A stretch of DNA of 47,677 bases from Candidatus Cloacimonadota bacterium (GTDB lineage: Bacteria > Cloacimonadota > Cloacimonadia > JGIOTU-2), in NCBI GenBank assembly GCA_030611765.1, contig JAUWPE010000003.1, forward strand, positions 1-47,677, read 5' to 3'. The position numbers and the translations under genes were made by a program. Numbering within the stretch: the first letter of the stretch is position 1; each line of letters begins with the position of its first letter. Below, piece by piece: positions 1,343 through 44,370 of this stretch. Under the pieces are notes generated by a model, which ran no database searches, was not told the DNA's origin, and saw only the letters and a list, made by a program, of their open reading frames with translations.

Positions 1343-4300
1343 ATGATAAAAAAAGTTTTAAAAAAGATTTTCGGGACTCAGTTCGAGCGGGAAGTGAAGA
1401 AAATTCAGCCCGTTGTGGATGAGATAAATCGCATATATGCGGAACTTTCCTCTCTTTCAGAAGAGGAACTTAAGCACAAAACGGTAGAATTCAAAGAGAG
1501 AATTCAGGATCGTCTTGATAAGAAGCAGCAACTGGTTGATGGGCTTGAGTTACATTATGATGAGACTTCTGACGATAATGAAAAAGATCGGATCGGTTTC
1601 CAGATCGATGATGCAAAGAAAGATCTCGATGAGGAAACCAAGAACGTTCTTGAAGAAATTCTTCCTGAAGCATATGCTGTGATCAAGGAAACATGCAGAC
1701 GCCTCGTTGGCACCTCATGGCAAGTTCGCAGCCGTGAAACAGAATGGAACATGATACCTTATGATGTGCAGCTCATTGGCGCGATCTCATTGCATAATGG
1801 AATGGTCACAGAGATGAAAACCGGTGAAGGAAAAACTCTTGTTGCAACCATGCCTCTGTATCTGAACTCACTTGTGGGTAAGGGATCTCACCTTGTTACG
1901 GTGAATGACTATCTTGCTCAGCGTGATGCCGAATGGATGGGACAGATATACAAATATCACGGTTTGACTGTTGGTTGTATTTTCGGAAATCAAGAACCAT
2001 CGGTGCGTAGAGAGCAATATGCTGCTGATATCACCTACGGCACAAATAATGAATTCGGCTTTGATTATCTAAGAGATAATATGGCGATTAGCCCTGAAAG
2101 CATTGTACAGCGTGAACATTATTACTGTATCGTTGATGAAGCTGATAGTGTACTTATCGACGAAGCAAGAACTCCACTTATTATTTCGGGTACAGTTGAG
2201 CACTCGAAAAATTATTTCAGGGAACTCAATCCACAGATCAGAAAATTAGTGACCAAGCAGCAACGTTTAGTGAATGAACTTCTCTCCGAGATAAATACAA
2301 TGATCGAGAAAGGGACTTCGCAGGAAAATGAATTTGAATTCGGGAAGAAGATGCTAACAGTAAAGCGTGCTGCTCCGAAATCCAAACGGTTCATGAAGAT
2401 ACTGAAAGACGGAACTTATCAAAAGATCATGAATGAAATCGAGGGACAGTATCTGCGAGAGAAACAGCTTCATAAGCTTGACGAGCAGCTTTACTATACT
2501 ATCGACGAAGGGCAGCGCAGTGCAGACCTTAATGAGATGGGGCAGGATGAGCTTTCTAAATTTGACAGCTCACTTTTTATCATGCCGGACCTTGATGAAG
2601 AGATCGAAAAAATAAATAAAGATGAGTCCCTTAATTCGGCTGCAAAGCAGGTAAAAAAGCAGAAGTCGCAGGAAGATTTTTTAGAAAAGAATGAGAAGCT
2701 TCATAATATAAAACAAATGCTGCTTGCATATTCACTTTTTGAAAAAGATGTGGAATATATTGTAACAGATAACCGAGTTGTTATTGTGGATCAATTTACA
2801 GGACGTATCATGCCCGGCAGACGATTTAGTGAAGGACTCCATCAGGCGTTGGAAGCAAAAGAGAATGTTCAGATACAAGAAGCCACGCAAACGCTTGCAA
2901 CTATTACGCTTCAGAACTATTTCCGTATGTACACAAAACTTGCAGGTATGACGGGTACAGCCATCACAGAGCAGGTTGAGTTTGAAGAAATTTATAAACT
3001 TCCCGTGATTGAAATTCCTACCAATGAACCAATACGCAGAATTGATTATGATGATTTGATCTACAGAACTAAGAAGGAGAAATACGAAGCGCTCGCCGAT
3101 GAAATTGAAGAGATGTATCAACAACGCAGACCTGTGCTCGTAGGAACAATATCCGTTGAAGTTTCAGAGATCATCAGCCGGTTGCTGAAAAGAAAGAATG
3201 TTCCTCATGAAGTGCTGAACGCAAAATATCATGAGAAAGAAGCTGAGATCGTTGCCTATGCCGGACTACCCGGTGCTATAACCATTGCTACGAATATGGC
3301 AGGTCGTGGAACAGATATCAAACTTGGCGAAGAAGTTGTTCGATGCGATACCTGTATCGTTAAATGTGTGGGGGACTGTAAGGATGCGGGAAATAATAAA
3401 CCAAATCCTGATCATAACTGCAAGGAAAAAATGCCCTGCGGTTTGCATATCATTGGCACAGAGCGTCACGAAAGCAGACGAATCGACAGACAGTTGCGCG
3501 GACGTAGCGGGCGTCAGGGTGATCCGGGTTCATCAAAATTCTTTCTTTCTCTCGAAGATGACCTTATGAGAATTTTCGGCTCGGATAGAATTGCAGGTTT
3601 GATGTCCAGAATGGGGCTCAAAGAAGGCGATGCGATAAAGCATCCGTGGATGACCAAGGCAGTTGAAAACGCACAGAAAAAAGTGGAAGGTCATAACTTC
3701 GAAATACGTAAACAACTCATAAAATATGACGATGTTATGAACCAGCAAAGAGAGGTTATATACTCATATAGAAGAAAAGTTCTGAAAGGTTTGGACCTTC
3801 GGGATGAAGTTCTGGAAATGCTTGACGATACGATAAATAGCAAAGTATCCTCATTTATTGGTTCAAGTGAATATGAAGAGAATTGGCCTCTTGAAGATAT
3901 TGTTGGTTGGTTCGAAAATGAGCTTGGGGTCAAAATCAATATTTCTCTTGAACTTGGCTCAATCAATAATAAGGAAGACCTGATCCACACTCTTTATGAG
4001 CAGCTAACAAAAGCTTATGCACGCAAGGAAAAACATTTTGAAGAAGAGCAAAGAAAACTGGAGCGATACTCTGTTTTGAAAGTTGTGGATGAGCAATGGA
4101 AAGATCATCTATATGAAATGGATAGACTGAAAGAGGGCATCGGTTTGCGTGCATATGGACAGAGAGATCCACTCATCGAATATAAAAAAGAAAGTTTTGA
4201 ACTCTTCCTGAATTTGATCGATACTATTAAAGAGAAAGTGATAAAAAATGTCTTCACACTTTATCCTGCGCTCTATTATCAAGTGCAAGACAGAGTTAAA

Positions 4301-4534
4301 GATATGCAGCTTTCTCATAAAGAAAGGAATGCATTTGATCATGTTGCTTCCAGCGCTGAGGATCAGAGAGAACGAATGCAAAATATGCAGCAAGGACAAC
4401 ATCGAGTTCAGCAGCAACCTGAGGAACCAAAACGTCAACCTATGAGAAGAGATACAGAAAAAGTGGGGAGAAATGATCCCTGCCCCTGTGGAAGCGGTAA
4501 GAAATACAAGCATTGCTGCGGACAGAAAGGATAA
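1343..4534 (+). CDS. secA: Preprotein translocase ATPase SecA (long form)
   Basis: EMKTGEGKT Walker [47 protein letters not shown]-terminal [22 protein letters not shown]. Confidence 0.99.
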
Positions 4535-4548
4535 ATAGGAAAGTAGAT

Positions 4549-6741
4549 ATGGCAAAGAATTTACTCATCGTAGAATCACCGACAAAATCAAAAACAATTA
4601 GCCAATACCTTGGAAAAGATTTTAATATTCTTGCTTCAATGGGGCATATTCGAGACCTGCCCCAAAAGGAATTCGGAATAAATCTGAAAGATAATTTCAA
4701 ACCTACCTATGTGCTGGATCCAAAAAAATCCAAAGTAGTAAATAATATTAAAAAAGCTGCAAAAGAGAGCGAAAATATCTATCTTGCATCAGATAATGAT
4801 AGAGAGGGCGAAGCGATTGCATGGCATCTCAAAGAGATATTGAAAAATATTATTCCGGAAAAGGATATATACAGAATTGTATTTAATGAGATTACGCGGG
4901 AGGCTATTATTGAAGCAATTGAGAAACCCACCCATGTTGACGAGAACAAGGTTGATGCACAGCAGACACGCAGGATTCTTGATAGGATCGTTGGATACAA
5001 AGCAAGTCCAATCTTATGGAAGGTTATCACAAAAAACCTGTCCGCAGGTAGAGTACAGACTGTGGCATTACGACTTATTTGCGAGCGAGAACAAGAGGTC
5101 AGAGATTTCGTACCCCAGGAATACTGGTCAATCGAAGCTTATCTGAAAAAGGATATCGAATTCAAAGCTCAACTGAAAAAATATGCCAATAAAGTTATCA
5201 AGCTGAACACAAAAGAGGAAGCTGAAGAGATATTCGAGAAGCTCAAAAACGCTGATTATATCGTAAAGGGCGTGAAGAAAGAAAAAAAATCAATTGCTCC
5301 TTTTCCTCCATTTATAACAAGTACTCTGCAACAGGAAGGATCAAAATTACTGGGATTCTCGATTAAGAAAACCATGCAGATCGCCCAGCAACTCTACGAA
5401 GGAGTGACCATACACGGACGCAACACGGGTCTTATTTCATATATGAGAACTGATTCTGTACGTATCTCGGATAAAGCGAATTTTCAAGTCAGAAAATATA
5501 TCAAAGATTCCTTTTCTGAAGAATATTTGAATTCCTATATTCGAAAATACAAAAATAGGAATAAAGCTCAGGATGCCCATGAGGCGATCCGTCCCACGAA
5601 TTCTTTCACAACACCGAATTCAATCAAAGAATTTATGTCAAAAGACCAGTATAAGCTCTACAATCTAATCTGGAAAAGGTTTGTTGCCACACAACTTTCC
5701 AATGTGCAATTGGAAAATATCACCGCACAGATTCAGGCAGAAAAAGGATTGTTTGAATCTCAAGCAGGAAAAATCCTTTTTGATGGATTTATAAAAGTCT
5801 ATACTCATGTACCTATTAAAAATCTTAAAGAAACCTTTCCTGAGCTTGTCCAAAATGATGAAGTCGAGTTGCTGAAACTTAATAAAGAGCAGCATTTTAC
5901 TCAACCCTCATCACGATATACAGAAGCCTCGCTTGTTCGAAAACTCGAGCAGGAAGGTATCGGGCGTCCAAGCACCTATGCACCTATTATTTCTACCATT
6001 CTGCAGAGAAAATACGTGACACTTCAAAAGAAGAAATTTTTCACAACAGAGCTGGGCGAAACCGTTGAGAAATTCCTAATTGATAAATTTGAAGATTTTT
6101 TTAATGTGAAATTCACTGCGGAAATGGAGAACAAACTCGATAATATCGAGAAAGGGGAGTTGAACTGGATAGAAATACTTAAAAAATATTACGATGATTT
6201 TATCAGTCATCTGGATAAGATCGATATTTCAAAGGAAAAGAAGAAATATGAGCAGAAAACTGATATCGTATGTGATAAATGCGGTTCTCCGATGATAATA
6301 AAATTTGGGAAATACGGGAAATTCATTGCCTGTTCTGCCTTTCCGAAATGTAAAAACGTGAAATCCCTTGATGAGAATGAGGAGATCGTTGAACCGGAAA
6401 CCAATGAAAAATGTCCGAAATGCGGCGGTAGGATACTTTTGAAGAATGGTAAATATGGTAAATTTTATGCGTGCGAAAATTATCCGAAATGCAAATTCAC
6501 TAAACCTTTTACTATTGGTGTGAAATGCCCTCAATGCGGCGGAGAGCTTATTGAAAGAAAGGGCAAACAGAACAAAATTTATTATACATGTTCCAATTAT
6601 CCTACATGTAAATTTCTTACAAATAAGAAGCCCGTTGCTATTAAATGTCCTGATTGTGGTGCAGAATCCATGTTTGAAAAACCATCACGAAAAAAGGCGA
6701 AAATCCTTGTTTGTGAAAAATGCGGAAAAGAACTCGCATAA
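4549..6741 (+). CDS. topA: DNA topoisomerase I with C-terminal Zn ribbons
   Basis: LLIVESPTK TOPRIM, ASDNDREGEAIAWH, SAGRVQT, LISYMRTDS active site, QDAHEAIRPT, repeated CxxCG motifs; ATG at 4549 after AGGA. Confidence 0.98.
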   Translation: MAKNLLIVESPTKSKTISQYLGKDFNILASMGHIRDLPQKEFGINLKDNFKPTYVLDPKKSKVVNNIKKAAKESENIYLASDNDREGEAIAWHLKEILKNIIPEKDIYRIVFNEITREAIIEAIEKPTHVDENKVDAQQTRRILDRIVGYKASPILWKVITKNLSAGRVQTVALRLICEREQEVRDFVPQEYWSIEAYLKKDIEFKAQLKKYANKVIKLNTKEEAEEIFEKLKNADYIVKGVKKEKKSIAPFPPFITSTLQQEGSKLLGFSIKKTMQIAQQLYEGVTIHGRNTGLISYMRTDSVRISDKANFQVRKYIKDSFSEEYLNSYIRKYKNRNKAQDAHEAIRPTNSFTTPNSIKEFMSKDQYKLYNLIWKRFVATQLSNVQLENITAQIQAEKGLFESQAGKILFDGFIKVYTHVPIKNLKETFPELVQNDEVELLKLNKEQHFTQPSSRYTEASLVRKLEQEGIGRPSTYAPIISTILQRKYVTLQKKKFFTTELGETVEKFLIDKFEDFFNVKFTAEMENKLDNIEKGELNWIEILKKYYDDFISHLDKIDISKEKKKYEQKTDIVCDKCGSPMIIKFGKYGKFIACSAFPKCKNVKSLDENEEIVEPETNEKCPKCGGRILLKNGKYGKFYACENYPKCKFTKPFTIGVKCPQCGGELIERKGKQNKIYYTCSNYPTCKFLTNKKPVAIKCPDCGAESMFEKPSRKKAKILVCEKCGKELA

Positions 6742-8000
6742 TGAAATACTCAGAAGTTTTAGTTTCTGGAATTAAAAGCATTTTATCTCATAAATTGCGC
6801 TCATTTCTGACCTTAGCAGGCATTATGATCGGTGTGGCAGCAGTTACAACAATGTTCTCCTCGGTTGAGGCAATGAAAAATCTCATCGAGGAGACGATCA
6901 GTTCACTTGGATATGATAATGTGATCGTGCTCTATTCAAAATTTCCTGATACCAGTACTGATAAATTAAAAAAATACAAAACAGTAAAACGCTTTCAGCA
7001 AATCAATTACGACGATTATGAAGCGCTAAAAGATAATCTTCAAAATGTGGAATATATCTATCCCACTATTGACGATCAACGAAATACGATCATAAATGGA
7101 AAGAAAAGCCAGATCCGTTTGAAAGGTGTTAAAAATATTTTCTTCGCAGAAAAAAATTATTATTTTGTAGAAGGAAGGGAATTCAATACCATCGAATCCA
7201 AAAACGGTGAGAATGTCTGCATTCTTGGCGAAACCATAAGCACGAAACTTTTTCCCAAAGGCAAAGTTCTCGGGCAATATATATCGATAGGGGATATTCG
7301 GCTGAAAGTGATTGGTGTCATTGACTTCGAAACCAGCGAGAGTGGTTTTGCTAAAGCGAATGAGTGGGAGAGAAGACTCGCACTTGAATCCTGCTATGTT
7401 CCTTCAAAATTCGCAGCGAAATATCTTCGTCCAACAATGAATATCGATGTCATGTGGATAAAAGCAACCGATGCTGATCTTGTAGGGGATGTATATAATT
7501 CAGCAGTTCAGATATTGCGTTCCAGACATAATATGGCAGATGATGTCGGTATGAGGGACATCAGTGCGGATATGCTCGAGGTCAGGCAGCAGGTGAATGA
7601 ATTTTTAAAGAATTGGAATATTATTCTGCTGGCAATTTCCAGCATCTCGCTTTTTACAGGCGGCATCGGACTCTTTAGTATTTTGCTCATTTCTATTACA
7701 GAACGTATGAAAGAGATCGGTATTCGTAAGAGTGTCGGTGCAAAGAATAGAGACATTTTTTTCTACTTTCTTTTTGAGTCGATAATTCTTGCTCTTATTG
7801 GCGGTCTGGTGGGTTCAGGTCTAGCCCTGTTACTGATAGGAGCGTTAAGCAATGCACTGAAAGTCGTTGTTTCATTCCCAATTATGGGAATTATTGTTGG
7901 TTTATCTTTTGCCATTATCATGGGTTTAGTTTCGGGATTTTATCCTGCGTACAAAGCATCAAAAATAGATCCCATCAAAGCAATTTTTTATACGGAGTAA
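6741..8000 (+). CDS. MacB/FtsX-family ABC transporter permease
   Basis: RSFLTLAGIMIGVAAV, SITERMKEIGIRKSVGA, GFYPAYKASKIDPIKA; TAATG overlap with topA. Confidence 0.93.
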   Translation: MKYSEVLVSGIKSILSHKLRSFLTLAGIMIGVAAVTTMFSSVEAMKNLIEETISSLGYDNVIVLYSKFPDTSTDKLKKYKTVKRFQQINYDDYEALKDNLQNVEYIYPTIDDQRNTIINGKKSQIRLKGVKNIFFAEKNYYFVEGREFNTIESKNGENVCILGETISTKLFPKGKVLGQYISIGDIRLKVIGVIDFETSESGFAKANEWERRLALESCYVPSKFAAKYLRPTMNIDVMWIKATDADLVGDVYNSAVQILRSRHNMADDVGMRDISADMLEVRQQVNEFLKNWNIILLAISSISLFTGGIGLFSILLISITERMKEIGIRKSVGAKNRDIFFYFLFESIILALIGGLVGSGLALLLIGALSNALKVVVSFPIMGIIVGLSFAIIMGLVSGFYPAYKASKIDPIKAIFYTE

Positions 8001-8009
8001 TACGATATA

Positions 8010-9362
8010 GTGATTACAATTATTGCAATACTTTTTCTGATAGGCATATTGGTTTTTGTTCATGAGTTCGGGCATTTCATCGTAGCTCGGCTCAATCATG
8101 TCAAAGTTGAGAAATTCTCATTTGGCTTTGGACCAAAACTATTTTCGTGGACTATTGGAGAAACCGAGTATAGAATATCACTCATACCGCTTGGCGGGTA
8201 TGTTAAAATGTTGGGTGAGAACCCTGATGAAGCATCCAACGGGGAGCTTCTTGATAAGAGGAGTTTTAAGCAGAAACGCTGGTGGCAGAAAGCTCTGATC
8301 GCTTTTGGAGGACCCTTTGCCAATTTCCTGTTCGCAATTTTGATCCTTGCGCTTACGTACACCATTGGAATAAAAATCTATGACATTGCTCCAGTGATAG
8401 GCAGAATTTCCGAAGAAGCATATACGGCAATTCCCCTTGAAAGCGAAGATAGGATAGTGAGCATTGATGGAGTTCCAATTACTGGCTGGGCATCCATAAT
8501 TCAGGAATGGGTAACAAAATCTCCAGATAAAAGGCAGATCACTTATATACGGGATAATGATACACTTTTTACTCAAACGAAAAATTTTTCCTATGAACTT
8601 TGGCTTTCAGACATAAAACCTTATGTGCCTGCAATTATCGGAGATGTCTATTATGGATTACCTGCATATCAGGCAGGTTTGAAAAAGGGTGATACCATTG
8701 TTAGAATTGAGGATACGGAAATTCATGACTGGTATGACCTGCAGGGAATCATTAAAAATAATGCGGATCGTCCTTTGCATTTTGTAGTGCAAAGAGATGA
8801 TGAGTTGCTGGAGATGGATATCACTCCTCAGATTAATATCGAACTTGATGAAAACTCGGGTATTATTGGAATCTCTCAAATTCTGGAACAGGAATATATT
8901 GAGAGTTTCTCTGTGTCAAACTCATTTAAATACGCATTTCTTACAACAATAGACTTCATAGGTCGGTATTATAGTGGATTATTCAAACTTGTTCAGCATC
9001 CGTCTCAAGTTGGTAAAAGCGTGGGTGGTCCTATAATGATCGCATCGCTGACAAGCCAGCAGGTGAGAGAAGGCATAAGTGCCTATCTCTCATTCCTCGC
9101 AATGATCAGCATCATCTTTATGATCGTCAACCTGCTTCCTATTCCTGTTCTTGATGGAGGAATGATCATCTTTTCCATTATTGAAGGTATAAAAGGTAAG
9201 CCGCTCAAATTAAACACGCAGGTGATCCTTCAACGTATAGGGGGAATAGTTTTACTGTTTATCATGATTTATGCTTTCTATAACGATATTTCGAGATTTG
9301 TGGGGCGATATTTCTCCCTGAAGCGATCCAATACTCCCACAACTCTCGAAAAACCACAATAG
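8010..9362 (+). CDS. rseP: RIP metalloprotease RseP (M50, PDZ domains)
   Basis: VFVHEFGHF, FSFGFGP, PLGGYVKM, NLLPIPVLDGG. Confidence 0.96.
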   Translation: MITIIAILFLIGILVFVHEFGHFIVARLNHVKVEKFSFGFGPKLFSWTIGETEYRISLIPLGGYVKMLGENPDEASNGELLDKRSFKQKRWWQKALIAFGGPFANFLFAILILALTYTIGIKIYDIAPVIGRISEEAYTAIPLESEDRIVSIDGVPITGWASIIQEWVTKSPDKRQITYIRDNDTLFTQTKNFSYELWLSDIKPYVPAIIGDVYYGLPAYQAGLKKGDTIVRIEDTEIHDWYDLQGIIKNNADRPLHFVVQRDDELLEMDITPQINIELDENSGIIGISQILEQEYIESFSVSNSFKYAFLTTIDFIGRYYSGLFKLVQHPSQVGKSVGGPIMIASLTSQQVREGISAYLSFLAMISIIFMIVNLLPIPVLDGGMIIFSIIEGIKGKPLKLNTQVILQRIGGIVLLFIMIYAFYNDISRFVGRYFSLKRSNTPTTLEKPQ

Positions 9363-9381
9363 AATGGGCTTGTTGAAGAAA

Positions 9382-9429
9382 TAAGTGGGTTAGTTGAAAA
9401 TTCAGATTTTAAGTATATCGACCCACTTA
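9382..9429. repeat. Intergenic inverted repeat TAAGTGGGT...ACCCACTTA
   Basis: Arms at 9382-9390 and 9421-9429; the same arm recurs at 36229. Confidence 0.5.
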
Positions 9430-9449
9430 AAAATAAAAGGAACCATAAA

Positions 9450-10586
9450 ATGAGTTTCAAGTTCTCCGTTCATACTCAGGATTCGATCACTTCAGCTCGC
9501 ACAGGAGAGCTTACACTTCCTCACGGAACAGTCAAAACTCCTGTCTTCATGCCTGTGGGTACACTCGGTACAGTGAAAGCCACTTCCCCGGAAGAATTAG
9601 AGAACATCGGATTTGATATAATCCTTGGAAACACTTATCATTTGTATCTACGTCCTGGAGATGAACTTATTAAAAAAGCAGGCGGACTGCACTCTTTTAT
9701 CAACTGGGACAGGAATATGCTTACTGACAGCGGTGGCTTTCAGGTCATGAGCTTGCAGCAGTTCAGGAAGATCACGGAAGAAGGCATTGGATTTCAATCT
9801 CATATAGATGGGAGCTCTCATTTTTTCAGTCCGGAACGAGTAATGGAGATCGAGCACAATCTTGGGGCTGATATCATTATGGTGCTGGATGAGTGTGCTC
9901 CCCATCCCTGCACAAAGGAATATGCAAAGGAATCTGCCGATATGTCACTCCGCTGGGCAGAACGATGCAATATCAAGCATGAGCAGCTCGGTGGGGAACA
10001 ATCCATATTTGGAATAGTGCAGGGAAGTATTTTTGATGACTTGCGTGAAGAGAATGCAAAAGAACTTATCAGCATTGATTTCCCCGGCTATGCCATTGGA
10101 GGTTTAGCTGTTGGTGAAAATAAGGAGGATATGCTACGAATTGTTAACCTGATGGATAGGGTTCTGCCCAAAGAGAAACCACGCTATTTAATGGGCGTGG
10201 GAACACCACTCGATCTGCTTGAGAATATCGAGCGCGGGGTGGATATGTTTGACTGTGTGATGCCCACGCGTCATGCACGAAACGGGCAGGCATTTACCAG
10301 AGATGGCAGACTTACAGTAAGAAACGGTAAATATAAAGAGGATTTCCGTCCTATTCAGGATGATTGTAACTGTTATGCTTGTAGAAATTTCTCTCGCGCC
10401 TACATTCGCCATCTTATCAATGTGAAAGAGATACTTGGTGTTCGATTAACGACCCTGCATAATTTAACCTTTTATAATACTCTGATCAAAGAAATAAGAG
10501 AAGCCATTAACAGTGGCGTTTTCTCACAATACAAAAGCAATTTTATCGAACGTTACACACGTTCCGATGATGTCCAATACATATAA
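9450..10586 (+). CDS. tgt: tRNA-guanine(34) transglycosylase
   Basis: TPVFMPVGT, LGNTYHLYLRPG, TDSGGFQVMSL, DMFDCVMPTRHARNG, CNCYAC Zn site. Confidence 0.98.
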   Translation: MSFKFSVHTQDSITSARTGELTLPHGTVKTPVFMPVGTLGTVKATSPEELENIGFDIILGNTYHLYLRPGDELIKKAGGLHSFINWDRNMLTDSGGFQVMSLQQFRKITEEGIGFQSHIDGSSHFFSPERVMEIEHNLGADIIMVLDECAPHPCTKEYAKESADMSLRWAERCNIKHEQLGGEQSIFGIVQGSIFDDLREENAKELISIDFPGYAIGGLAVGENKEDMLRIVNLMDRVLPKEKPRYLMGVGTPLDLLENIERGVDMFDCVMPTRHARNGQAFTRDGRLTVRNGKYKEDFRPIQDDCNCYACRNFSRAYIRHLINVKEILGVRLTTLHNLTFYNTLIKEIREAINSGVFSQYKSNFIERYTRSDDVQYI

Positions 10587-10596
10587 TTATTAAAAA

Positions 10597-11037
10597 ATGA
10601 ACACAAAGAAGTCATTTAAAACCAACGTGACCACCGAGTACACTGAGAAAATAGAAAGAGACTCTTTCACTGAGAAAATTATTGGCTGTGCAATAGAGGT
10701 ACATAGAAATCTCGGACCTGGGTTGCTTGAATCGACATATAAACAATGCTTAGCAAGGGAGCTGTCAACTCATAATATTAAATTCTTTTTGGAACATCCT
10801 ATACCAGTCAATTATAAAGGGATCCATTTAGAATGCGGATATAGAATTGATATTTTATGTGTAAGCAGTGAGCAAAATCGTAAAGTCATCTTGGAATTGA
10901 AATCTATAGAAGAAATTATTAATATTCACAGAGCTCAATTGCTTACTTATATGAAACTTGCCAATATTGATACAGGTTTATTAATGAATTTCAATGTAAA
11001 ACAATTAAAAGATGGAATTGAAAGATTTAAGTTTTAA
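10597..11037 (+). CDS. GxxExxY protein (PD-(D/E)XK nuclease-like), copy 1
   Basis: IIGCAIEVHRNLGPGLLESTY, YRIDIL...ILELKS, AQLLTYMKL, GLLMNF. Confidence 0.92.
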   Translation: MNTKKSFKTNVTTEYTEKIERDSFTEKIIGCAIEVHRNLGPGLLESTYKQCLARELSTHNIKFFLEHPIPVNYKGIHLECGYRIDILCVSSEQNRKVILELKSIEEIINIHRAQLLTYMKLANIDTGLLMNFNVKQLKDGIERFKF

Positions 11038-11096
11038 ATCTCTGTGTCCTCTGCCTGCCACGTCGAAGTGTAACGGAGACGGGTGCTCTCTGTGGT
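10630..11096. mobile_element. GxxExxY cassette bounded by family A inverted repeats (ACCACAGAGnnCACAGAG)
   Basis: Left arm accaccgagtacactgag at 10630-10647; right arm ctctgtgtcctctg[30 nt]tgctctctgtggt at 11040-11096; sits between tgt and porX. Confidence 0.6.
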
Positions 11097-11143
11097 GGGA
11101 AAGAATGTGTGTAATGGATAAGTTCTGATGAAAGGAATATAGA

Positions 11144-12700
11144 ATGAAAAAAGCAAAGATACTCTGGATAGATGATGAAATACAGATGCTCAAACCGCAT
11201 ATAATATTTCTAGAAGAAAGAAATTTCGAAGTGGTTTCAGCATCCAATGGAAACGACGGTATTGCCCTCGTCGAAGAACAAAATTTTGATATCGTACTTC
11301 TCGATGAGATGATGCCCGGACTCGACGGACTGGAAACTCTTGTGCAGATCAAGAAGCTCAATGAAAGTCTGCCTGTGGTAATGGTTACCAAGAACGAAGA
11401 AGAGGGTTTGATGAACAAAGCGATCGCCCAGCAGATCACAGATTATATCATCAAGCCGATCAATCCCAACCAGATACTGATGTCCCTTAAGAAGATATTG
11501 ATGTCTGAAGAGATCCGCAGAAACCGGACAGGCGAAGAATATGCGGAATTCTCTGCAAAACTCAATCAAAAACTTTTTGCAGAACCGAACTGGCAGGATT
11601 GGATAGATATTTATCGCTCCATTGCAGAGTGGGATCTGAAGCTGGATCAGCTATACTACGAAGATATCATTCAAATGCACTCGTATGAAAAGAAAAATTG
11701 CGATACCGAGTTTTCAAACTACATCGCTGCTCATTATGAAGATTTTCTCACTCAATCCGATAGTCCGGTGCTTTCTCCTGATATTGTAAGAAAATACGCT
11801 GCCGACAGATTGTACACAAAGAAGGTTGTTTATTTTGTTGTTCTCGACTGTCTTCGACTCGATCAATTCATGACAATTAAGCCCTTTATTGAAGAGCTTT
11901 TCAATGTGAAAACCGATTATTATTATTCAATTTTACCCACGTCAACGCCATATTCTCGAAATGCAATTTTCAGCGGTATGATGCCAGGCAAGATAGCGAA
12001 AGTGTACCCACAATTCTGGCGCACCAGCAAAGAAGTGGAAAGCAGTCTTAACCGCGATGAGCACTTTTTCATGGATGAACAGCTCAAGAAAATGGATATT
12101 CCCATGCCACATGGAAGTAAGTATATAAAGGTACTGAATACTGAGGAAGGCGAGTATGTCACAAGAAAGATCCCTTCCTATAAAAAAGAGCGATTGGTCA
12201 TTCTCGTATATAACTTTTTGGACATGCTGCTTCATCACAGATTTAAAGATGAAATACTTCAGGAAATTATACCTAACGACCGCGCATTGCGTTCGTTAAC
12301 AAAGCTGTGGTTTTTGAATTCTCAGTTCTATGAGACACTCAAACTCATTGCAAAACAGGATGCGGTTGTCATACTTACAACTGATCACGGATCGATAAAA
12401 GTCGAGCATCCAACAAAGGTTATCAGCGATAAGGAAATCTCATCCGGATTGCGCTCAAAACACGGCAAGAATATCACCTGTAATGATAGGCATACTATCA
12501 AAGTTTCAGACCCGAAAAGATACGGACTTCCTATTGAAAATGTTGTAGAGAACTACATCTTTGCCAAAGGTGATCATTACTTTGTGTATCCAACTGCTTA
12601 TAATGAGTACAAGCGTAAATTCGACGGCACCTATCAGCACGGCGGTGTTTCCATGGAAGAAATGATCCTGCCGGTATCGATCTTAACAACCAAGAAGTAA
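11144..12700 (+). CDS. porX: PorX-like response regulator with PglZ/alkaline phosphatase domain
   Basis: Receiver ILWIDDE/VLLDEMMPG; LDCLRLDQ, SILPTSTPYSRNAIFSG, TTDHG, YQHGGVSMEEMILP; 518 aa; adjacent to tsaE. Confidence 0.9.
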   Translation: MKKAKILWIDDEIQMLKPHIIFLEERNFEVVSASNGNDGIALVEEQNFDIVLLDEMMPGLDGLETLVQIKKLNESLPVVMVTKNEEEGLMNKAIAQQITDYIIKPINPNQILMSLKKILMSEEIRRNRTGEEYAEFSAKLNQKLFAEPNWQDWIDIYRSIAEWDLKLDQLYYEDIIQMHSYEKKNCDTEFSNYIAAHYEDFLTQSDSPVLSPDIVRKYAADRLYTKKVVYFVVLDCLRLDQFMTIKPFIEELFNVKTDYYYSILPTSTPYSRNAIFSGMMPGKIAKVYPQFWRTSKEVESSLNRDEHFFMDEQLKKMDIPMPHGSKYIKVLNTEEGEYVTRKIPSYKKERLVILVYNFLDMLLHHRFKDEILQEIIPNDRALRSLTKLWFLNSQFYETLKLIAKQDAVVILTTDHGSIKVEHPTKVISDKEISSGLRSKHGKNITCNDRHTIKVSDPKRYGLPIENVVENYIFAKGDHYFVYPTAYNEYKRKFDGTYQHGGVSMEEMILPVSILTTKK

Positions 12701-12701
12701 A

Positions 12702-13166
12702 ATGTCTCACGATTCTTTTTCTCAGGAATTTACAAGTGGTTCTGAAAACGAGACTTCCCAGATCGCAAAAGATTTTGCTGAAATACTGCAAATGGGTGAT
12801 GTCGTGGCACTAAGAGGTGAACTGGGCAGCGGGAAAACTTTTTTTGTGAAAAAGGTAGTTGAGAAATTGGGATTTAATGGCTATGTATCAAGTCCAACCT
12901 TTACCATCCTGAATATTTATGAAGCTTCGACCTATCTCTATCATTTTGATTTCTACCGCCTGAATAATATCGAAGCAATTGAAAAGATCGGCTTTTACGA
13001 TCTGCTCACGGAAGATGGGATTTTTTTCATAGAATGGCCAGAAAAAGCTGAAGAACTATTCCCTGATGAATATTTTGAGATAAAAATTGACATTATTAAT
13101 AGAACTCACAGAAAAATAAGTATAAAGAAAATCACTGGAAATGAGGATGCATTATGTCGAAATTGA
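12702..13166 (+). CDS. tsaE: tRNA threonylcarbamoyladenosine biosynthesis ATPase TsaE
   Basis: LRGELGSGKT, VSSPTFTI, YHFDFYRL, FIEWPE. Confidence 0.96.
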   Translation: MSHDSFSQEFTSGSENETSQIAKDFAEILQMGDVVALRGELGSGKTFFVKKVVEKLGFNGYVSSPTFTILNIYEASTYLYHFDFYRLNNIEAIEKIGFYDLLTEDGIFFIEWPEKAEELFPDEYFEIKIDIINRTHRKISIKKITGNEDALCRN

Positions 13167-14500
13167 TGAAAAGTGTTTCCGGCATTCGAGGAATTGTTGG
13201 AGACACTCTCACAACGGAACTTGTGCTCTCTTTTGCAAAACGTTTCGGAGTATTTTCCGGACGAGGAAAAGTCGTAGTTGGAAGAGATTCCCGAACCACT
13301 GGAAAAATGCTGCTCAACGTTGTTTCTGCAGGTTTAGTGTCAGTTGGAGTTGATGTGATCGATCTCGGGATTTGTCCCACGCCTACAATACTTCTTGCTG
13401 CAGAAAATCTCAAAGCTGACGGAGGGATTGCTATCACTGCGAGCCATAACCCGCAGGAATGGAATGCATTGAAACTTATAAATAACACTGGCACTTTTTT
13501 GACGCCAGCCCAATCTCATGATTTCTGGAACATTCCCGAAAATGAGTTAAAAGACCTTGATTGGGCTAAGATCGGATCATTCTCACAATATGGTTGTGCG
13601 ATCGAAGACCACATCGAAGCGATCCTGAAACTTCCTATTATAGCGTCAGATAAGATAAAAGAAAAGAATTTCAAAGTAGTCATAGATTCCACAAATGGTG
13701 CAGGTGGTTTGATGTCACCACTTCTGCTAAAAGCGCTTGGTTGTGAAGTGATAGAGCTGTATTCAAAACCGAATGGAATGTTCTCACGCATTGCAGAACC
13801 GGCAGCAAAAAATCTTGGCGTCCTGGAAAATGAAGTAAAAAAATATGCTGCTGATATTGGCTTTGCTACAGATCCCGACGTGGATAGATTATCCATTGTT
13901 TCTAATGATGGGATTGCGCTTGGCACAGAATATACACTGCTGCTTGCTGAAAAGTATGTGCTCTCACAAAAGAAGGGAAATATTGCTACGAATTTATCTT
14001 CCTCGATGGCTTCAGATGTGATTGCAAAGGGAAACGGAGTTGAAATTTTTCGATCTCGTGTAGGTGAGATCAACGTCGCAGAAGCAATGAAGGAGCACGA
14101 TTGCATCATAGGTGGTGAGGGCAATGGTGGAGTCATTCTGCCCGATCTTCACTTCACTCGTGATGCTCCACTTGGAATGGCGCTTATCCTTTCATATATG
14201 GCTGTTTCACGGAAAAAAATCTCAGAATTAGCAGCAGAAATTCCTAAGTATTATATCTATAAGACCAAGCTGGATATCTCTGAAGATACTGATTTTGATG
14301 AAGTGACGAGAAATATCATTCAAGATTATTCTCATAAAAAACTTGATACACTGGATGGCATTAAAATTATTGATCCTGAGTTTTGGATTCATATAAGGAA
14401 ATCCGGAACCGAACCGATCGTGCGAATTATTGCAGAGAGCAGTTCCGAAGAAGAATCAAAAAAACTGTGTGAAGATATTATTCAAAAATATTTAGGGTAA
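13154..14500 (+). CDS. glmM: Phosphoglucosamine mutase-like phosphohexomutase
   Basis: SVSGIRG, ITASHNP, DPDVDR, GGEGNGG, RKSGTEP; substrate specificity is inferred. Confidence 0.8.
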   Translation: MSKLMKSVSGIRGIVGDTLTTELVLSFAKRFGVFSGRGKVVVGRDSRTTGKMLLNVVSAGLVSVGVDVIDLGICPTPTILLAAENLKADGGIAITASHNPQEWNALKLINNTGTFLTPAQSHDFWNIPENELKDLDWAKIGSFSQYGCAIEDHIEAILKLPIIASDKIKEKNFKVVIDSTNGAGGLMSPLLLKALGCEVIELYSKPNGMFSRIAEPAAKNLGVLENEVKKYAADIGFATDPDVDRLSIVSNDGIALGTEYTLLLAEKYVLSQKKGNIATNLSSSMASDVIAKGNGVEIFRSRVGEINVAEAMKEHDCIIGGEGNGGVILPDLHFTRDAPLGMALILSYMAVSRKKISELAAEIPKYYIYKTKLDISEDTDFDEVTRNIIQDYSHKKLDTLDGIKIIDPEFWIHIRKSGTEPIVRIIAESSSEEESKKLCEDIIQKYLG

Positions 14501-14560
14501 GAAATAATGGAAAAATTTACGGTAAATTGTTTTGATACTAATTCACAAAAAGGAGTATAA

Positions 14561-14848: not shown

Positions 14849-14989
14849 GATTACTCTTAATTTATTTCTATATTGTTAGTTAGGAAGCAGTTTCTTATAT
14901 TTTAGTTTAGATAATATTGATCTGATTTTTTGCTTCTATGAGATCGTTTTCTGTATCAAATTCAAAAATCAGAATTATCTTGTAATAAG

Positions 14990-15720
14990 CCCGTCACGGA
15001 GCAGTGTAACGGAGATGGATCGAGAGCTTGGGATTTCTTGTCACAAGTCGGAGAGCTTATGATAAGTAATTCGTTGGAACATTACAACTTAAGACATGCT
15101 CTGCGACATGTCTCAAGTTTTCAAAAAATAGAATTTAATTTATTTTTCTTCATTTTTTTCTAAATCAGTGTTAATCTGTGTTCTGGAAATGAAATGAAGA
15201 CGGATTCTTTTCTGCTCCCGAGTCGTTCTCTTCGCGACCGACTCGTGATTTCCACCACCACAAAAAACAAAAAATGTCATTCTCGACCATGCTCAACTTG
15301 ATTGGGTATCGGGAATCCAGTATTTTCGCCTTCTCTGAACTCCATCCATATAAATCGGGCTGAAGTCCAGTCTGCTAGGGTTGGACTGGACTTGAGAGAC
15401 GAAGTCCTCGAGTTCAGAACAACCGGACAACCGACTATGCATTCTGAACTCCACCCACCTTTGGCGTGCGAAGTCCAGTCTTTGAATCCCTCTCATCAAA
15501 TCGGAGATACCTATAAAAATTAGAGGATAATTTTCTGAAATACTTATTAATAAAGTGTTTGCGAAAGATTTAAGTTTAAAATTACTAATCAATATCATTA
15601 TGGAAATCTTTCAAAAAAAATTAAAAAAAGACGTCTTTCTTCCCGATATTCTGGAATCGGGAATCCAGTATTTTCGCCTTCTCTGAACTCCATCGCCGGC
15701 TGGCTGATGAAGTACAGGAA
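14990..15720. repeat. Mosaic of short palindromic repeats between convergent genes
   Basis: 30-nt unit at 14990-15019, hairpin at 15088-15117, family B arm near 15163-15184, REP at 15216-15250, GTCATT...GGGAATCCAG unit at 15275-15320, 36-bp module repeated at 15310 and 15659. Confidence 0.8.
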
Positions 15721-16653: not shown

Positions 16654-17450
16654 ATAAATAATTTTAACCACGAAAAACACGAAAATCACGAAAGAGTTTT
16701 TTAAGAAAAATATTTCATTAAATTTCATTTTATTTATTATGTGTTTTTTTTATTCATGAATTAACTCTATTAAAAATCCAGAACACGTTTTTTCATATAC
16801 TTCAAAAAATCGTACACTGAATTGAATTATTCTTTTCTTCAAAATAATTTACGTCTAACATAATTTGTATTAATTGTCATTCAAATGCTATCTTTATTTT
16901 TATTACATTATCATAAATAATTTTAACCACGAAAAACACGAAAAGCACGAAAGAGTTTTTTAAGAAAAATAGTCTATAAAACTTCATTTTATTTATTATG
17001 TGTTTTTTCTATTCATGAATTAACTCTATTAAAAATACAGAACACATTTTTTCATATACTTCAAAAAATCGTACACTGAATTGAGTTATTCTTTTCTTTC
17101 AAAATAATTTACGTCTAACATAATTTGTATTAATTGTCCTTCAAATGCTATCTTTATTTTTATTACATTATCATAAATAATTTTAACCACGAAAAACACG
17201 AAAATCACGAAAGAGTTTTTTAAGAAAAATATTTCATTAAATTTCATTTGATTTATTATATGTTTTTTTTATTCATGAATTAACTCTATTAAAAATCCAG
17301 AACACATTTTTTCATATACTTCAAAAAATCGTACACTGAATTGAGTTATTCTTTTCTTCAAAATAATTTACGTCTAACATAATTTGTATTAATTTTTCTT
17401 CAAATGCTATCTTTATTTTTATTACATTATCATAAATACTTTTAACCATG
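16654..17450. repeat. Three tandem copies of a 259-260 bp AT-rich unit, each starting with a family A arm
   Basis: ACCACGAAAAACACGAAAA at 16667, 16926 and 17186, partial fourth at 17445; intervening sequence near-identical. Confidence 0.95.
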
Positions 17451-17494
17451 AAAGTGGTGTTTAAAAAAAATATTCTTAAAAACTTCATTTAATT

Positions 17495-17552
17495 TTTCGC
17501 GTTTTTCGTGCCTTTCGCCTGCAACGGCGTAGCGTAGTGAAGATGTGTGGTT
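17495..17552. repeat. Family A right arm interrupted by a 30-nt micro-element
   Basis: tttcgcgtttttcgtgcctttcg[17518-17547]tggtt; inverted relative to the arms of the tandem array. Confidence 0.8.
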
Positions 17553-26235: not shown

Positions 26236-27145
26236 AATCACGAGTCGGCCACGAAGGGAACGACTCGGGATGGAGTTTCAATCTTTAAACCCGACTCATC
26301 TTTGCAAGCTGAGTCGTGTTTATCATTATTCAAATAATTTCCTGTCTTCCTCATACTTTTCATCTGAATAAACTTCCATCATCTTTGAATATTCCAACGG
26401 TGTTAGATCAAACCAATCCCATACCTCATTGCAAAATAACTTCCCTTTTCGTTTACCAATCCATTCAAGACAATTTGAGTAGATCCAGTCCTCCGGTCTT
26501 TTAACAAGATTTGATTTCACTGGATTGAAATGGATATACAGGCATAATCTGATAAAATATTTTTCTGTTGCTACTATTTTGTGTTGCAAAGGACTTCGAA
26601 ACAATGTTCCTTTTCTGCTATATTTGTGATTGTAATATAAAGTATACCCCGAAAATATATCGTTAAAGATTTTGTATATGGGCACATCACTATCTTGCCG
26701 GATGAAGAAGTGATAGTGATTCGGCATTAAACAATAAGAAAATATCGTTGCGGGATATAATAGTATTTTCTGTTTAAACTTACTGATAACTCTGAGATAG
26801 TCATTTTTTTTACGGAAAAGATTTTGGTGCTCAACCGCGTGATTGTATATATGGAAACAACTTCCTTTAATAAAATTTTCTTTCTTTACTCTCATAATAA
26901 TTACATATTATCATGGAATCACGAGTCGGTCACGAAGGGAACGACTCGGGATGGAGTTTGCGCGATTTCAACCCGACTCATCTTTGCAAGCTGAGTCGTG
27001 TCTCAAAAATATCATGAGACCTCCTGATTATTTTTTCACAAGAGAATTTGAAATTATTTTTCAACGAAATAAACTACGATTTTTGCGTCAAGGAATATGA
27101 TAATCGAGTCACGAGTCGGCCACGAAAGGAACGAATCAGGATGGA
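26236..27145. mobile_element. REPtron-like locus: RAYT flanked by direct-repeat double-hairpin REP modules (family C)
   Basis: ~84-bp modules at 26236-26319 and 26917-27001 (CACGAGTCGG...CGACTCGGG plus CCCGACTCATCTTTGCAAGCTGAGTCGTG); third partial copy at 27109-27145. Confidence 0.85.
26326..26895 (-). CDS. REP-associated tyrosine transposase (RAYT, Y1 HUH)
   Basis: FHIYNH, YCLMPNHYH (HUH), YYNHKYSRKGTLF, YIHFNPVK, PEDWIYS. Confidence 0.93.
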   Translation of the reverse strand: MRVKKENFIKGSCFHIYNHAVEHQNLFRKKNDYLRVISKFKQKILLYPATIFSYCLMPNHYHFFIRQDSDVPIYKIFNDIFSGYTLYYNHKYSRKGTLFRSPLQHKIVATEKYFIRLCLYIHFNPVKSNLVKRPEDWIYSNCLEWIGKRKGKLFCNEVWDWFDLTPLEYSKMMEVYSDEKYEEDRKLFE

Positions 27146-29392: not shown

Positions 29393-29415
29393 GTAAGAAT
29401 AGAACACTCAAGAAT

Positions 29416-30130
29416 AGCACGCAGATGAACACAGATTGAGCAGATTTGCGCAGATGAATATTTAGTATATATTTTCTTTTTCATTTTCATTTTACATTTC
29501 TTAATCAGTGTTTATCAGCATCATCAGCGAAAATCTGCGTTCTATTCTCTTTATAATAGCACGCAGATGAACGCAGATTGAGCAGATGTTCGCGGATAAA
29601 ATTCTTCATATTACTTTATTTCATTTACTTCGTTAATTCATCAGCGTTTATATGTAATCCACTGCTTAGTCGTATTTGAATAGATCTTTCTCCTAACTTC
29701 AGGCTTATTGCCGAAATTAAGTATCAGTCCTACTTCATATTCAGTTGCCTTTAGATAGTTTATTAATTGAGTTTCATTTTCTGGAATTAGAAATTTGTTA
29801 GCTTTGAGTTCAATTATAACCTTATTTTCAACAACTAAATCAGCATAATATTCTCCAACTATACTTTCTTTATAAAACACTTGAATTCGTTTCTGAGATT
29901 CAACAGAAAAATTCTTCATCTCAAGTTCAAATTTTAACGAATTCTCATAAACTTTTTCAAGAAAACCGTAACCTAAAGTATTATACACTTTATAGAAACA
30001 GTTAATGATCTTATCAGTTAAATCTGAGTATTTATATTCCATATTTAATTAATATTTTTGTTTTTCATTTTCATTTTTTCTTTTCTTAATCAGTGTTTAT
30101 CCGTTTCATCAGCGTTAATCTGTGTTCCAT
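29416..30130. mobile_element. GxxExxY cassette bounded by family B inverted repeats, inserted between umuD and umuC
   Basis: GCACGCAGATGAACGCAGAT-type arms at 29417-29455 and 29558-29597; complementary arms at 29503-29543 and 30088-30129. Confidence 0.7.
29641..30042 (-). CDS. GxxExxY protein (PD-(D/E)XK nuclease-like), copy 2
   Basis: VYNTLGYGFLEKVYEN, YYADLVVENKVIIELKA, QLINYLKAT, GLILNFG. Confidence 0.94.
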   Translation of the reverse strand: MEYKYSDLTDKIINCFYKVYNTLGYGFLEKVYENSLKFELEMKNFSVESQKRIQVFYKESIVGEYYADLVVENKVIIELKANKFLIPENETQLINYLKATEYEVGLILNFGNKPEVRRKIYSNTTKQWITYKR

Positions 30131-31351: not shown

Positions 31352-31398
31352 ATCCGAATTGACGTAACGCATAATTCCGGTCTTGCGTAATTGAATTT

Positions 31399-31700
31399 AC
31401 CACGAAAGGCACGAAAATATCTCTGCTTCTAATCCCTATTTCTATTTAATTATTTGCTGTGAGTCGTCATGGACCACTCCGTGACGAAGTTTTTGAATGA
31501 TGATTGAAGAATACTGATTTGGGATTTTAGGGGTGGGTGGTTGTCTCAAATGTCGGTTACTTGGGGGTAATTGACCCTACATGTAAACCGTTGCGAAGGT
31601 CAAAAGAAACCGTTCGCAAGGTTTATTATAACCAAAAATATCGATTGTCACCCTGAGCCGACATGTCGTAAGATATGGAGAGTCGCGGGGTCTAGCTTGC
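31399..31700. repeat. Cluster of REP-like palindromes
   Basis: Family A arm at 31399-31416; hairpin near 31464-31489 related to the one near 27319-27344; GTAG-type REP on the minus strand at 31552-31580; AAACCGTTGCGAAGGT/ACCGTTCGCAAGGTTT at 31585-31624; GTCACCCTGAGC unit at 31647. Confidence 0.7.
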
Positions 31701-39143: not shown

Positions 39144-39224
39144 TGAACGACCTTTCGCAGTGCAGTTTTTGAGATGGGGGAAAATTGTCAATTTTTGGGA
39201 GAAAATAAATCAAATAAAATCTTA

Positions 39225-39810
39225 ACCACGAAAAACACGAAAAAACACGAAAAAATAAATTTAAACAACCACAGAGGGCACAGAGAAACACAGAGATAAA
39301 AATAACCGAGAAGAAAAGCGAAGAGAGAAGAGCGAGGAAAGAATAAAAATCACGATCCGTCTTCATATCAACTATCGGGACGACGCTGTGGCAAGCCAGT
39401 CTTAGTTTCACTACTCTGTGATAAAACGGCGTAACATGCAGGTAGAGGAATTTTCGACTTGTGACAAGATAATTCCAAATAAAAAAGGGCATGTCATTCC
39501 CGTGAAAACGGGAATCCAGTTTATTAATAACAGCACGCAGATAAACGCAGATTGGGCAGATTTTGGCAGATATATATTGAATATTTTTAACCACAGAGAG
39601 CACAGAGAACACAGAGGAATTATCAAGTTAAAATTTTAAATATAATCAGTATTCCTTCTTTGCAGGATTTCACGGGGTAAATCAGTTTCATCAGCGTTAA
39701 TCTGTGTTCTATTCTTTTCAGATCCCCGAGTCATTCCCTTCGTGGCTGACTCGTGAAACGCAACACATGTTTATCAGCTTCATCAGCGTTTATCTGCGTT
39801 CTATTCTCTA
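39225..39810. repeat. Dense repeat mosaic between divergent lptF and the beta-helix gene
   Basis: Family A at 39225, 39268 and 39590; GTCATTCCCGTGAAAACGGGAATCCAG at 39493; family B at 39532-39571 and 39680-39803; family C at 39725-39756. Confidence 0.85.
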
Positions 39811-39906
39811 TTTTTAGCTCTTCGCGAATATTTGTCTTGACAGCTTTCTGAACAGATATTCCATTCATCACGAAGTTAAAAACTTAGCTTCGTAAAGAGA
39901 GGTAAA

Positions 39907-44221: not shown

Positions 44222-44370
44222 AAATCCGGAATATTATTGCTTTCTATTGTCGATATATTGTTAATTCAACTCTGCGTTCTCTGTGGTGTAATTTTTTCTC
44301 TTTAGTTTCCTTTGGCTTAAATTTTCTACAGTGTAAATACCTCATATCCTCTTGCGTATTTAGTACATTA

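Follow-up and report, generated by a model that had tools for sequence, protein, structure and literature searches.

Inverted 9-nt-periodic arrays and the GxxExxY nuclease gene between them are gained and lost as one cassette in Cloacimonadota

We analyzed 47,677 nucleotides of a Candidatus Cloacimonadota bacterium (GenBank assembly GCA_030611765.1, contig JAUWPE010000003.1, positions 1 to 47,677 of the forward strand), hereafter called the window, around a GxxExxY nuclease gene that lies between tgt and porX. The gene is the sole gene of a 551-bp insert, at 10571-11121, in which it is enclosed by inverted arrays of a short word repeated every 9 nt, here called arms. The gene is gained, lost, and inherited together with its arms; a direct repeat of 10 to 12 bp of the target appears to be left by insertion; sequence passes between cassettes at different loci, or one replaces another; deletions starting in arm units cause decay and yield gene-free arm pairs and solo arms; and the plan is common to many phyla. 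With a probability of about 0.5, we interpret 10571-11121 as a selfish mobile mini-cassette, that is, a RecB/Cas4-like nuclease gene between inverted 9-nt-period arrays together with derivatives that resemble miniature inverted-repeat transposable elements (MITEs). The cassette is real, widespread, and apparently undescribed: no description of the GxxExxY-arm association was found in published literature, a coverage that left subscription journals and supplements aside, and arm sequences searched in literature text matched only primers and unrelated genes.

The nuclease gene occupies 10597-11037 on the plus strand and encodes 146 amino acids. It lies between tgt (9450-10586) and the type IX secretion system response regulator gene porX (11144-12700), both of which were named by equivalog models. 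In profile searches, residues 24 to 144 of the nuclease matched PF13366 (PDDEXK_3; E value, 9.7e-40) and TIGR04256 (GxxExxY; E value, 6.2e-40), and its score of 136 bits lies above the curated cut-offs of 22 (PF13366) and 35. Because E45, D85, E100, K102, and a QxxxY motif are invariant among 44 aligned sequences, the product fits a predicted active RecB/Cas4-like PD-(D/E)XK enzyme. A ratio of nonsynonymous to synonymous substitutions (dN/dS) of 0.07 to 0.18 places the protein under purifying selection and argues that it has been kept functional. In a structure model (predicted local distance difference test, 86), an alpha-beta core was recovered, while residues 1 to 23, outside the domain, were modelled as disordered. 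The nearest folds by Foldseek were Cas4, a restriction-like protein, and Hjc, all weak (E, 1e-3 to 2.4e-3), and hidden Markov model matches to the Cas4/RecB family were likewise weak; none of the solved-structure chains matched the protein by sequence. Searches of the cassette against Pfam and NCBIfam returned PF13366 and TIGR04256 only, with no transposase of a known family, and PADLOC defense models gave only weak Cas4 and candidate matches (E, 1e-3 to 6e-3). No phage record matched the nuclease at an E value of 1e-8, eight plasmid or chromid records matched it, and Rfam yielded no family match anywhere in the window. The family is large, with more than 8,000 word-sharing candidates passing an E value of 1e-5, and in a 2012 survey of PD-(D/E)XK proteins, the function of PDDEXK_3 is given as "Unknown."

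The arms are inverted arrays with a 7-nt core and a 9-nt period. In what follows, G000 denotes the source genome of the window (a 2.23-Mb assembly), and other G numbers denote the related genomes compared with it. The forward, or left, arm (10621-10652, plus strand) comprises three 9-nt units and is translated in frame within the N-terminal extension formed by residues 1 to 23; it is worn, its first unit being degenerate, while at this position in the G009 ortholog all three units are clean. The reverse, or right, arm (11039-11099) opens 1 to 2 nt past the stop codon and is split by a 30-nt module that lies within an arm unit (11053-11082, with placement ambiguous by 1 nt). The same arm is found without the module in G009 and G005, and we therefore regard the module as a recent gain. 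A preliminary description of this DNA had proposed a GxxExxY nuclease within its own 9-nt-periodic inverted repeats, with the left arm in frame at the N terminus and the right arm just past the stop codon, and the sequence agrees with it on each count. Across 18 loci, core identity between the two arms is 97.9%; for the 2-nt spacers, identity is 44% when compared in register and 32% when compared out of register, a difference that over 108 spacer positions is too weak to support selection on pairing. Homologs also translate the same DNA repeat in differing frames. From these core and spacer identities and frame differences, we infer that what is conserved is one word arrayed in inverted orientation, in DNA or RNA, rather than a peptide or a fully paired stem. 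A single arm consists of direct tandem units and has no hairpin of its own, so pairing needs both arms.

The insert extends beyond its arms on both sides. Its left outer segment (10571-10596) supplies new last codons and a stop codon (10584-10586) to tgt as well as the cassette leader, and its right outer segment is 11100-11121; both are absent from empty junctions. A segment like the left one is present at a paralogous cassette on contig C157, tails like the right one come after arms at two other loci, and the last bases of the right one are kept in G007 beside an inserted restriction-modification system. Bordering the insert are the two copies of a direct repeat, at 10561-10570, inside the end of tgt, and at 11122-11131. 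A 12-nt inverted match between the tgt end and the right outer segment was also noted.

Comparison of empty and filled sites defined these borders. Of 41 related genomes, 33 yielded a PorX match, and 30 loci entered the comparison. In G008, G002, and G001 the junction is empty, with 12 bp between tgt and porX and a single copy of the 10-bp repeat, which in G000 and G009 is present twice with one mismatch. The cassette is intact in G000 and in this one congener, G009, and is decayed through a large internal deletion in G005, G010, and G007. The junction measures 57 bp in G003 and 92 bp in G006, and in G004 it ends at a contig end. Outside the genus, it is empty (9 to 30 bp) in four genomes, and four genomes hold toxin-antitoxin-like pairs there; in G007, a restriction enzyme and methylase pair adjoins the cassette remnant. 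The tgt-porX junction is a hot spot for small selfish modules. The proposal that the gene interrupts an otherwise adjoining tgt-porX pair was borne out, and the opposing outcome, fixation of the gene at this junction across relatives, was not found, as empty, intact, and decayed alleles coexist.

The decayed alleles point to the arms as the place where deletions begin. All three deletions, in G005, G010, and G007, end at an internal copy of the arm core that lies within conserved codons (10927-10933, plus strand), and two of them start in the left arm. Between G000 and G005, only two indels of at least 12 bp were seen over window positions 3526-14520, and both fall in the cassette: a 304-bp deletion of the gene in G005 and the 30-nt insert in the right arm of G000. 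A deleted allele, with a joint from 10624 to 10947, coexists with the intact one in a lake metagenome, at depths of 144 and 14, respectively.

Similar histories were reconstructed at other loci. Locus B, on C157, has an intact cassette in G000 and G005, a decayed one in G009, and an empty site in seven congeners, and the ends of the insert carry a direct repeat of 11 to 12 bp. Repeats were thus recovered at two sites, 10(-11) bp long at tgt-porX and 11 to 12 bp long at locus B, each with one mismatch. Because the empty alleles at tgt-porX and C157 hold no arm, gene and arms arrived together at these two loci. Locus C, on C120, has the gene only in G000, where it is bordered by two forward-arm copies; a remnant is present in G009, a gene-free arm pair alone in six congeners, and nothing in G003. 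The window contains a further cassette, on the minus strand, with a GxxExxY gene of another subfamily (29641-30042; TIGR04256 E value, 8.8e-39, and PF13366), a forward arm of a fourth arm type (30085-30128) upstream of a 42-nt leader, and a reverse arm (29555-29597). It is adjoined by a gene-free arm pair (29412-29547, minus strand) in which a 43-nt loop resembling the cassette leader separates a forward from a reverse arm; this pair folds arm on arm with a z score of -1.72 (9 of 200 shuffles were as good). Of the two arm pairs at this locus, G000 has the gene in the first and G001 has it in the second, and G009, G003, G006, G008, and G004 have gene-free pairs only. Overall, close genomes have between 0 and 20 copies of the PF13366 gene.

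Sequence divergence indicates traffic among loci. The positional orthologs of G000 and G009 at tgt-porX are 78.0% identical, with a synonymous divergence (dS) of 1.17, while their flanks are 88.5 to 94.6% identical (dS, 0.32 and 0.62), and copies at other loci reach 90.7% and 87.2% identity to that of G009. Likewise, at locus B the flanks are 98 to 99% identical and the gene is 88.8% identical. Since copies at the same locus are less alike than their flanks or than copies from other loci, cassettes have been replaced or converted between loci, and gene trees disagree with locus identity.

The association of arms with GxxExxY genes holds throughout the genome. PF13366 matched 11 stretches of the assembly, equivalent to 10 genes or gene fragments, and by eye all 17 of their 17 on-contig flanks carry arrays, forward upstream and reverse-complemented downstream. 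Four arm types occur, each paired with one protein subfamily. With a strict two-unit regular expression, 69 arrays of the CAC-led types were counted genome-wide; the two commonest two-unit patterns occurred 34 and 43 times, versus 0 and 1 for controls read backwards. Every one of the five CAC-type genes with both flanks on the contig has at least one forward core upstream and at least one reverse core downstream, and three have at least two cores on each side, levels that were reached by 0.345% and 0.015%, respectively, of 20,000 random pseudo-genes. Arms are therefore strongly enriched at these genes over other DNA, which the preliminary description had named as a point to check.

Gene-free arm pairs and solo arms exceed genes by about 10 to 1. 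Each pair is 110 to 135 bp long, its forward and reverse arms being joined by a loop of about 42 nt that matches the leader of gene-bearing cassettes. All nine gene-free arms that had been listed in the window are present, on the plus strand. Four of them belong to a set at 16666-17552, in AT-rich non-coding DNA between two minus-strand genes, where three tandem copies of about 260 bp are each opened by a forward arm (16666-16694, 16925-16953, and 17185-17213) and one reverse arm closes the set (17494-17552). The others are a solo forward arm at 31398-31418, two adjacent forward arms of two types at 39224-39296 (39224-39254 and 39267-39296), a solo forward arm with three clean units at 39589-39617, and a solo reverse arm between convergent genes at 44270-44288. 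Arms within 16666-17552 and those at 31398 and 39224 are of a sister type to the arms of the tgt-porX gene, and those at 39267, 39589, and 44270 share their core with that arm pair. The arm at 44270-44288 is also present at this site in G005, G001, and G007, with differing unit numbers, and not in G009.

The same plan recurred far beyond Cloacimonadota. A pattern scan of one genome per species, in which 593 of 600 stretches were confirmed among the matches listed, left 80 loci; one truncated locus and four with short flanks were dropped, and 75 were analyzed. Judged by record titles, these sampled loci include Planctomycetota, Desulfobacterota, Acidobacteriota, Verrucomicrobiota, Chloroflexota, Proteobacteria, Bacteroidota, Chlamydiota, and two archaea. 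Of the 75 loci, drawn from about 20 phyla, 59 have at least five inverted 7-mers common to both flanks, compared with 28.6% of permuted pairs. Arrays of at least three units at 9-nt spacing were seen in 25 upstream and 29 downstream flanks, versus 9 and 10 at 8-nt spacing and 0 to 2 at spacings of 6, 7, 10, 11, and 12 nt; of 79 control stretches inside genes, one had three units. The first reverse core follows the stop codon at a median distance of 9 nt (12 nt or less in 34 of 53 loci), and the upstream neighbor is co-directional with the nuclease gene at 59 of 72 loci. In cultured Bacteroides finegoldii, a cassette of the same plan separates radA from the gene that comes after it. On a tree of 110 protein domains, with 66 labelled rows, arm type required 19 changes, compared with 33 to 42 in 200 label shuffles; the repeat family thus follows the protein phylogeny, a comparison that had been suggested beforehand.

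Association and co-inheritance make it possible, and we propose tentatively, that the nuclease acts on its own arms. It would nick or cut arm arrays of its own type, and the break would be repaired from a gene-bearing copy, or the excised unit would be pasted elsewhere; the arms would thereby be both the arrays that the nuclease recognizes and the homology used for copy-in, in the manner of homing or of transposon-MITE pairs. Such putative copy-in of the homing type would fit both the conflict between gene tree and locus and the swap between arm pairs at the second window locus. The cassette would have no promoter of its own and ride on the upstream host gene. In the transcript, pairing of the two arms across the start region would probably limit translation or attract RNase III. 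A scan of 10300-11400 gave no promoter or terminator signal above shuffles, with a sigma-70 consensus that may not fit this phylum.

Several observations weigh against the interpretation of 10571-11121 as a selfish mobile cassette driven by its nuclease. The link between nuclease and arms is drawn from association and co-inheritance in sequences, and because kin share labels, the fit of arm type to the protein tree reflects co-inheritance and not co-evolution. G000 also has 15 matches to the PF05635 four-helix-bundle family, bracketed by other inverted units, mostly of 7 to 8 nt; about 8 of the 11 loci inspected by eye show the brackets clearly, and a k-mer test of them was noisy. Since these non-nuclease genes have the same kind of bracket, the bracket plan needs no nuclease inside. 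Conversely, 23 arm arrays occur in G011 (99% complete) and 15 in G003 (95% complete), with no PF13366 match in either genome even at an E value of 0.01. Outside the arms, the insert ends at tgt-porX show only a weak inverted repeat, and therefore a plain cut at the arms does not define the unit. The 10- to 12-bp direct repeats could be microhomology used for loss. The window copy, with its worn arms, gave a long-range stem no better than shuffles, with a z score of -0.89 and 20 of 100 shuffles folding equally well. Contigs from an RNA library hold both the intact and the deleted allele, and one spans tgt, the intact gene, and porX; they may include DNA carry-over, and RNA ends are not readable from them. 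Breaks in these contigs are uninformative on RNA processing, because they match the allele bubble also found in DNA runs.

These points lend themselves to other explanations. In one that we consider unlikely, although not far-fetched, the insert is an RNA element similar to an intervening sequence (IVS): the arms would act in RNA as a stem enclosing the open reading frame (ORF), cut by RNase III or hiding the start region, so that the insert is harmless in operons; host recombination would spread it, and the nuclease would be cargo, for example for restriction-like defense. Such an element agrees with the intact G009 cassette, which folds arm on arm in both minimum-energy and centroid structures (z score, -3.45; 0 of 100 shuffles), with arms that abut the start and stop codons, with the prevailing co-direction with the upstream gene, and with the lack of promoter or terminator signal above shuffles inside the cassette. 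PF05635, a family first found in 23S rRNA IVSs, has the same bracket in G000, and the Coxiella IVS measures 428 to 444 nt and has a 28-bp terminal stem, an ORF, and excision by RNase III (PMC4990558). Pairing, however, needs no tandem 9-nt period, yet the period is kept across arm types and phyla, and the spacers are hardly more complementary in register than out of it. Solo arms, moreover, are frequent and persist at orthologous sites, the probable target duplications and the new insertion sites are left unexplained, and the RNA-library contigs give no readable RNA ends.

It is less probable still that the arms form a small-repeat family in its own right, mobilized by another enzyme, such as a RAYT-like transposase (RAYT, REP-associated tyrosine transposase; REP, repetitive extragenic palindrome) or a host system, and that GxxExxY genes land in them or are captured by them. 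The persistence of arms in G011 and G003 would be expected under this explanation, as would the situation at locus C, where six congeners have gene-free pairs and only G000 has the gene, between two forward-arm copies; the genome also offers 14 matches to PF01797. Nevertheless, the RAYT-like genes each have their own palindromic repeats and none has 9-nt arms, arm type follows the GxxExxY subfamily, the empty alleles at tgt-porX and C157 lack any arm, and the gene-free loop matches the gene-bearing leader, as expected of deletion derivatives. Finally, an ordinary, vertically inherited host gene with repeat-type regulatory sites, not mobile at all, would account for purifying selection on the protein and for some cassettes being shared at one site by several congeners. 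It is nevertheless very improbable, given that three loci have clean empty sites, that decay has recurred (three of five lineages at tgt-porX), that gene trees are at odds with locus identity, and that copy number varies so widely among close genomes. The mobile mini-cassette remains our preferred interpretation.

Comparison with known systems places the cassette among several of them. Cas4 and RecB proteins are its nearest, weak relatives by fold and HMM match and share the E, D, ExK, and QxxxY motifs; unlike them, the window nuclease has a core of only about 120 amino acids, and these loci show no CRISPR link. I-Ssp6803I is a PD-(D/E)XK homing endonuclease. Free-standing homing endonucleases resemble the cassette in being small nuclease genes between host genes that spread from one homologous site to another, with a cycle of invasion, decay, and loss and with conversion between copies; the cassette differs in having no intron or intein, and it would invade arm pairs scattered over the genome instead of a single allelic site. 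Elements of the transposon-MITE type, of which the Correia elements of Neisseria are an example, share terminal inverted repeats, a probable target duplication, an excess of internally deleted, gene-free copies, and probable co-transcription with neighbors. Here, in contrast, no transposase of a known family is present, the sole gene encodes a nuclease of 120 to 146 amino acids, and the tgt-porX unit ends some 20 to 50 bp outside its arms. ORF-bearing 23S rRNA IVSs with a PF05635 ORF are similar in size and layout (about 430 to 550 nt, one ORF of about 120 to 146 amino acids, and terminal inverted repeats of about 28 bp), and they are described as selfish, horizontally acquired, and prone to ORF decay (PMC4990558). 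The cassette is instead found in operons and intergenic DNA, such as tgt-porX, not in a 23S rRNA helix, and carries a nuclease and periodic arm arrays.

The preliminary description had drawn a parallel to RAYT/REP biology, and part of it stands; at its core is a predicted binding or cutting of the arms by the nuclease. RAYT genes have their own inverted repeats, of a type particular to each lineage, with an excess of dispersed hairpin doublets, or REPINs (PMC3337134, PMC3116915, PMC5581495). The cassette gene is similarly flanked by its own, subfamily-specific inverted repeat type, and gene-free doublets are dispersed in excess. Other features depart from the parallel: the enzyme is a PD-(D/E)XK nuclease and not a Y1 HUH transposase, the repeats are tandem 7-nt cores at 9-nt spacing and not palindromes of 20 to 40 nt, the gene sits inside one doublet, and the genes are multi-copy (0 to 20 per genome) and polymorphic, whereas RAYTs are typically single-copy (PMC5581495). 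The bracketed PF05635 genes and the arms in genomes without a gene likewise have no place in it. The 14 PF01797 RAYT-like matches of the genome, all of them away from the tgt-porX nuclease gene and with palindromic repeat types of their own, also weigh against a simple RAYT parallel. One RAYT-like gene lies in the window (26326-26895, minus strand; REP-associated tyrosine transposase model E value, 7.7e-17, below cut-off), and one RAYT-associated palindromic repeat type occurs at 39700-39760 as well. By analogy, then, the cassette may work like a RAYT/REPIN or transposon-MITE pair and be built like an ORF-bearing IVS, with a PD-(D/E)XK nuclease and periodic arms. A far-reaching extension, which we offer as doubtful, is that GxxExxY nucleases are the enzymes of pan-prokaryotic hairpin mini-elements, a second, independent invention of the RAYT/REPIN kind, which would cut at an array of their own 7-nt word and drive the copy-in of themselves and of gene-free pairs, with the four-helix-bundle genes as a sister class.

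Further observations concern the repeats themselves. The 30-nt module belongs to a family with about 59 genome matches to a loose regular expression, 28 of them flagged within arms. In the window it occurs at 11053-11082 and 17518-17547; relatives of 39 and 69 nt were seen, all multiples of three. Within arms, the module takes one fixed position in the units, and it also forms tandem arrays of its own outside arms; no convincing stem was seen by eye when it was considered as a local hairpin. A repeated element of about 660 bp, found at window positions 39224-39900 and at C50:11491-12150, starts with a forward arm, ends with a reverse arm, and contains no GxxExxY gene; at its window copy, two forward arms of differing types stand side by side ahead of it. 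At sites orthologous to 44270-44288 (L153, L155, and L156), four genomes keep a solo reverse arm of 2 to 3 units, and the G007 arm is interrupted by a long insert. On G011:C283 (L189), forward arms form a tandem array. Contig C64 of G005 carries roughly 900 bp of additional coding sequence at window positions 14521-14560 and is rearranged relative to 14960-15660, including a forward arm that G000 lacks. The PF05635 loci include C120:425-730, C130:10952-11266, C122:35287-35601, and C157:10871-11469.

Taken together, these results give the GxxExxY family a concrete setting, as the sole gene of a compact mobile cassette with periodic inverted arms. Because each gene has a candidate recognition array beside it, testable substrates are available. 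The cassette explains a class of abundant intergenic repeats in many phyla, as well as many spurious N-terminal extensions in annotated proteins, and links both to ORF-bearing intervening sequences. In the organisms compared here, it shows a tgt-porX hot spot filled in turn by nuclease cassettes, toxin-antitoxin-like pairs, and a restriction-modification system. If the pan-prokaryotic extension were true, thousands of "GxxExxY proteins" would be sequence-specific nucleases whose specificity could be read from their own flanks.

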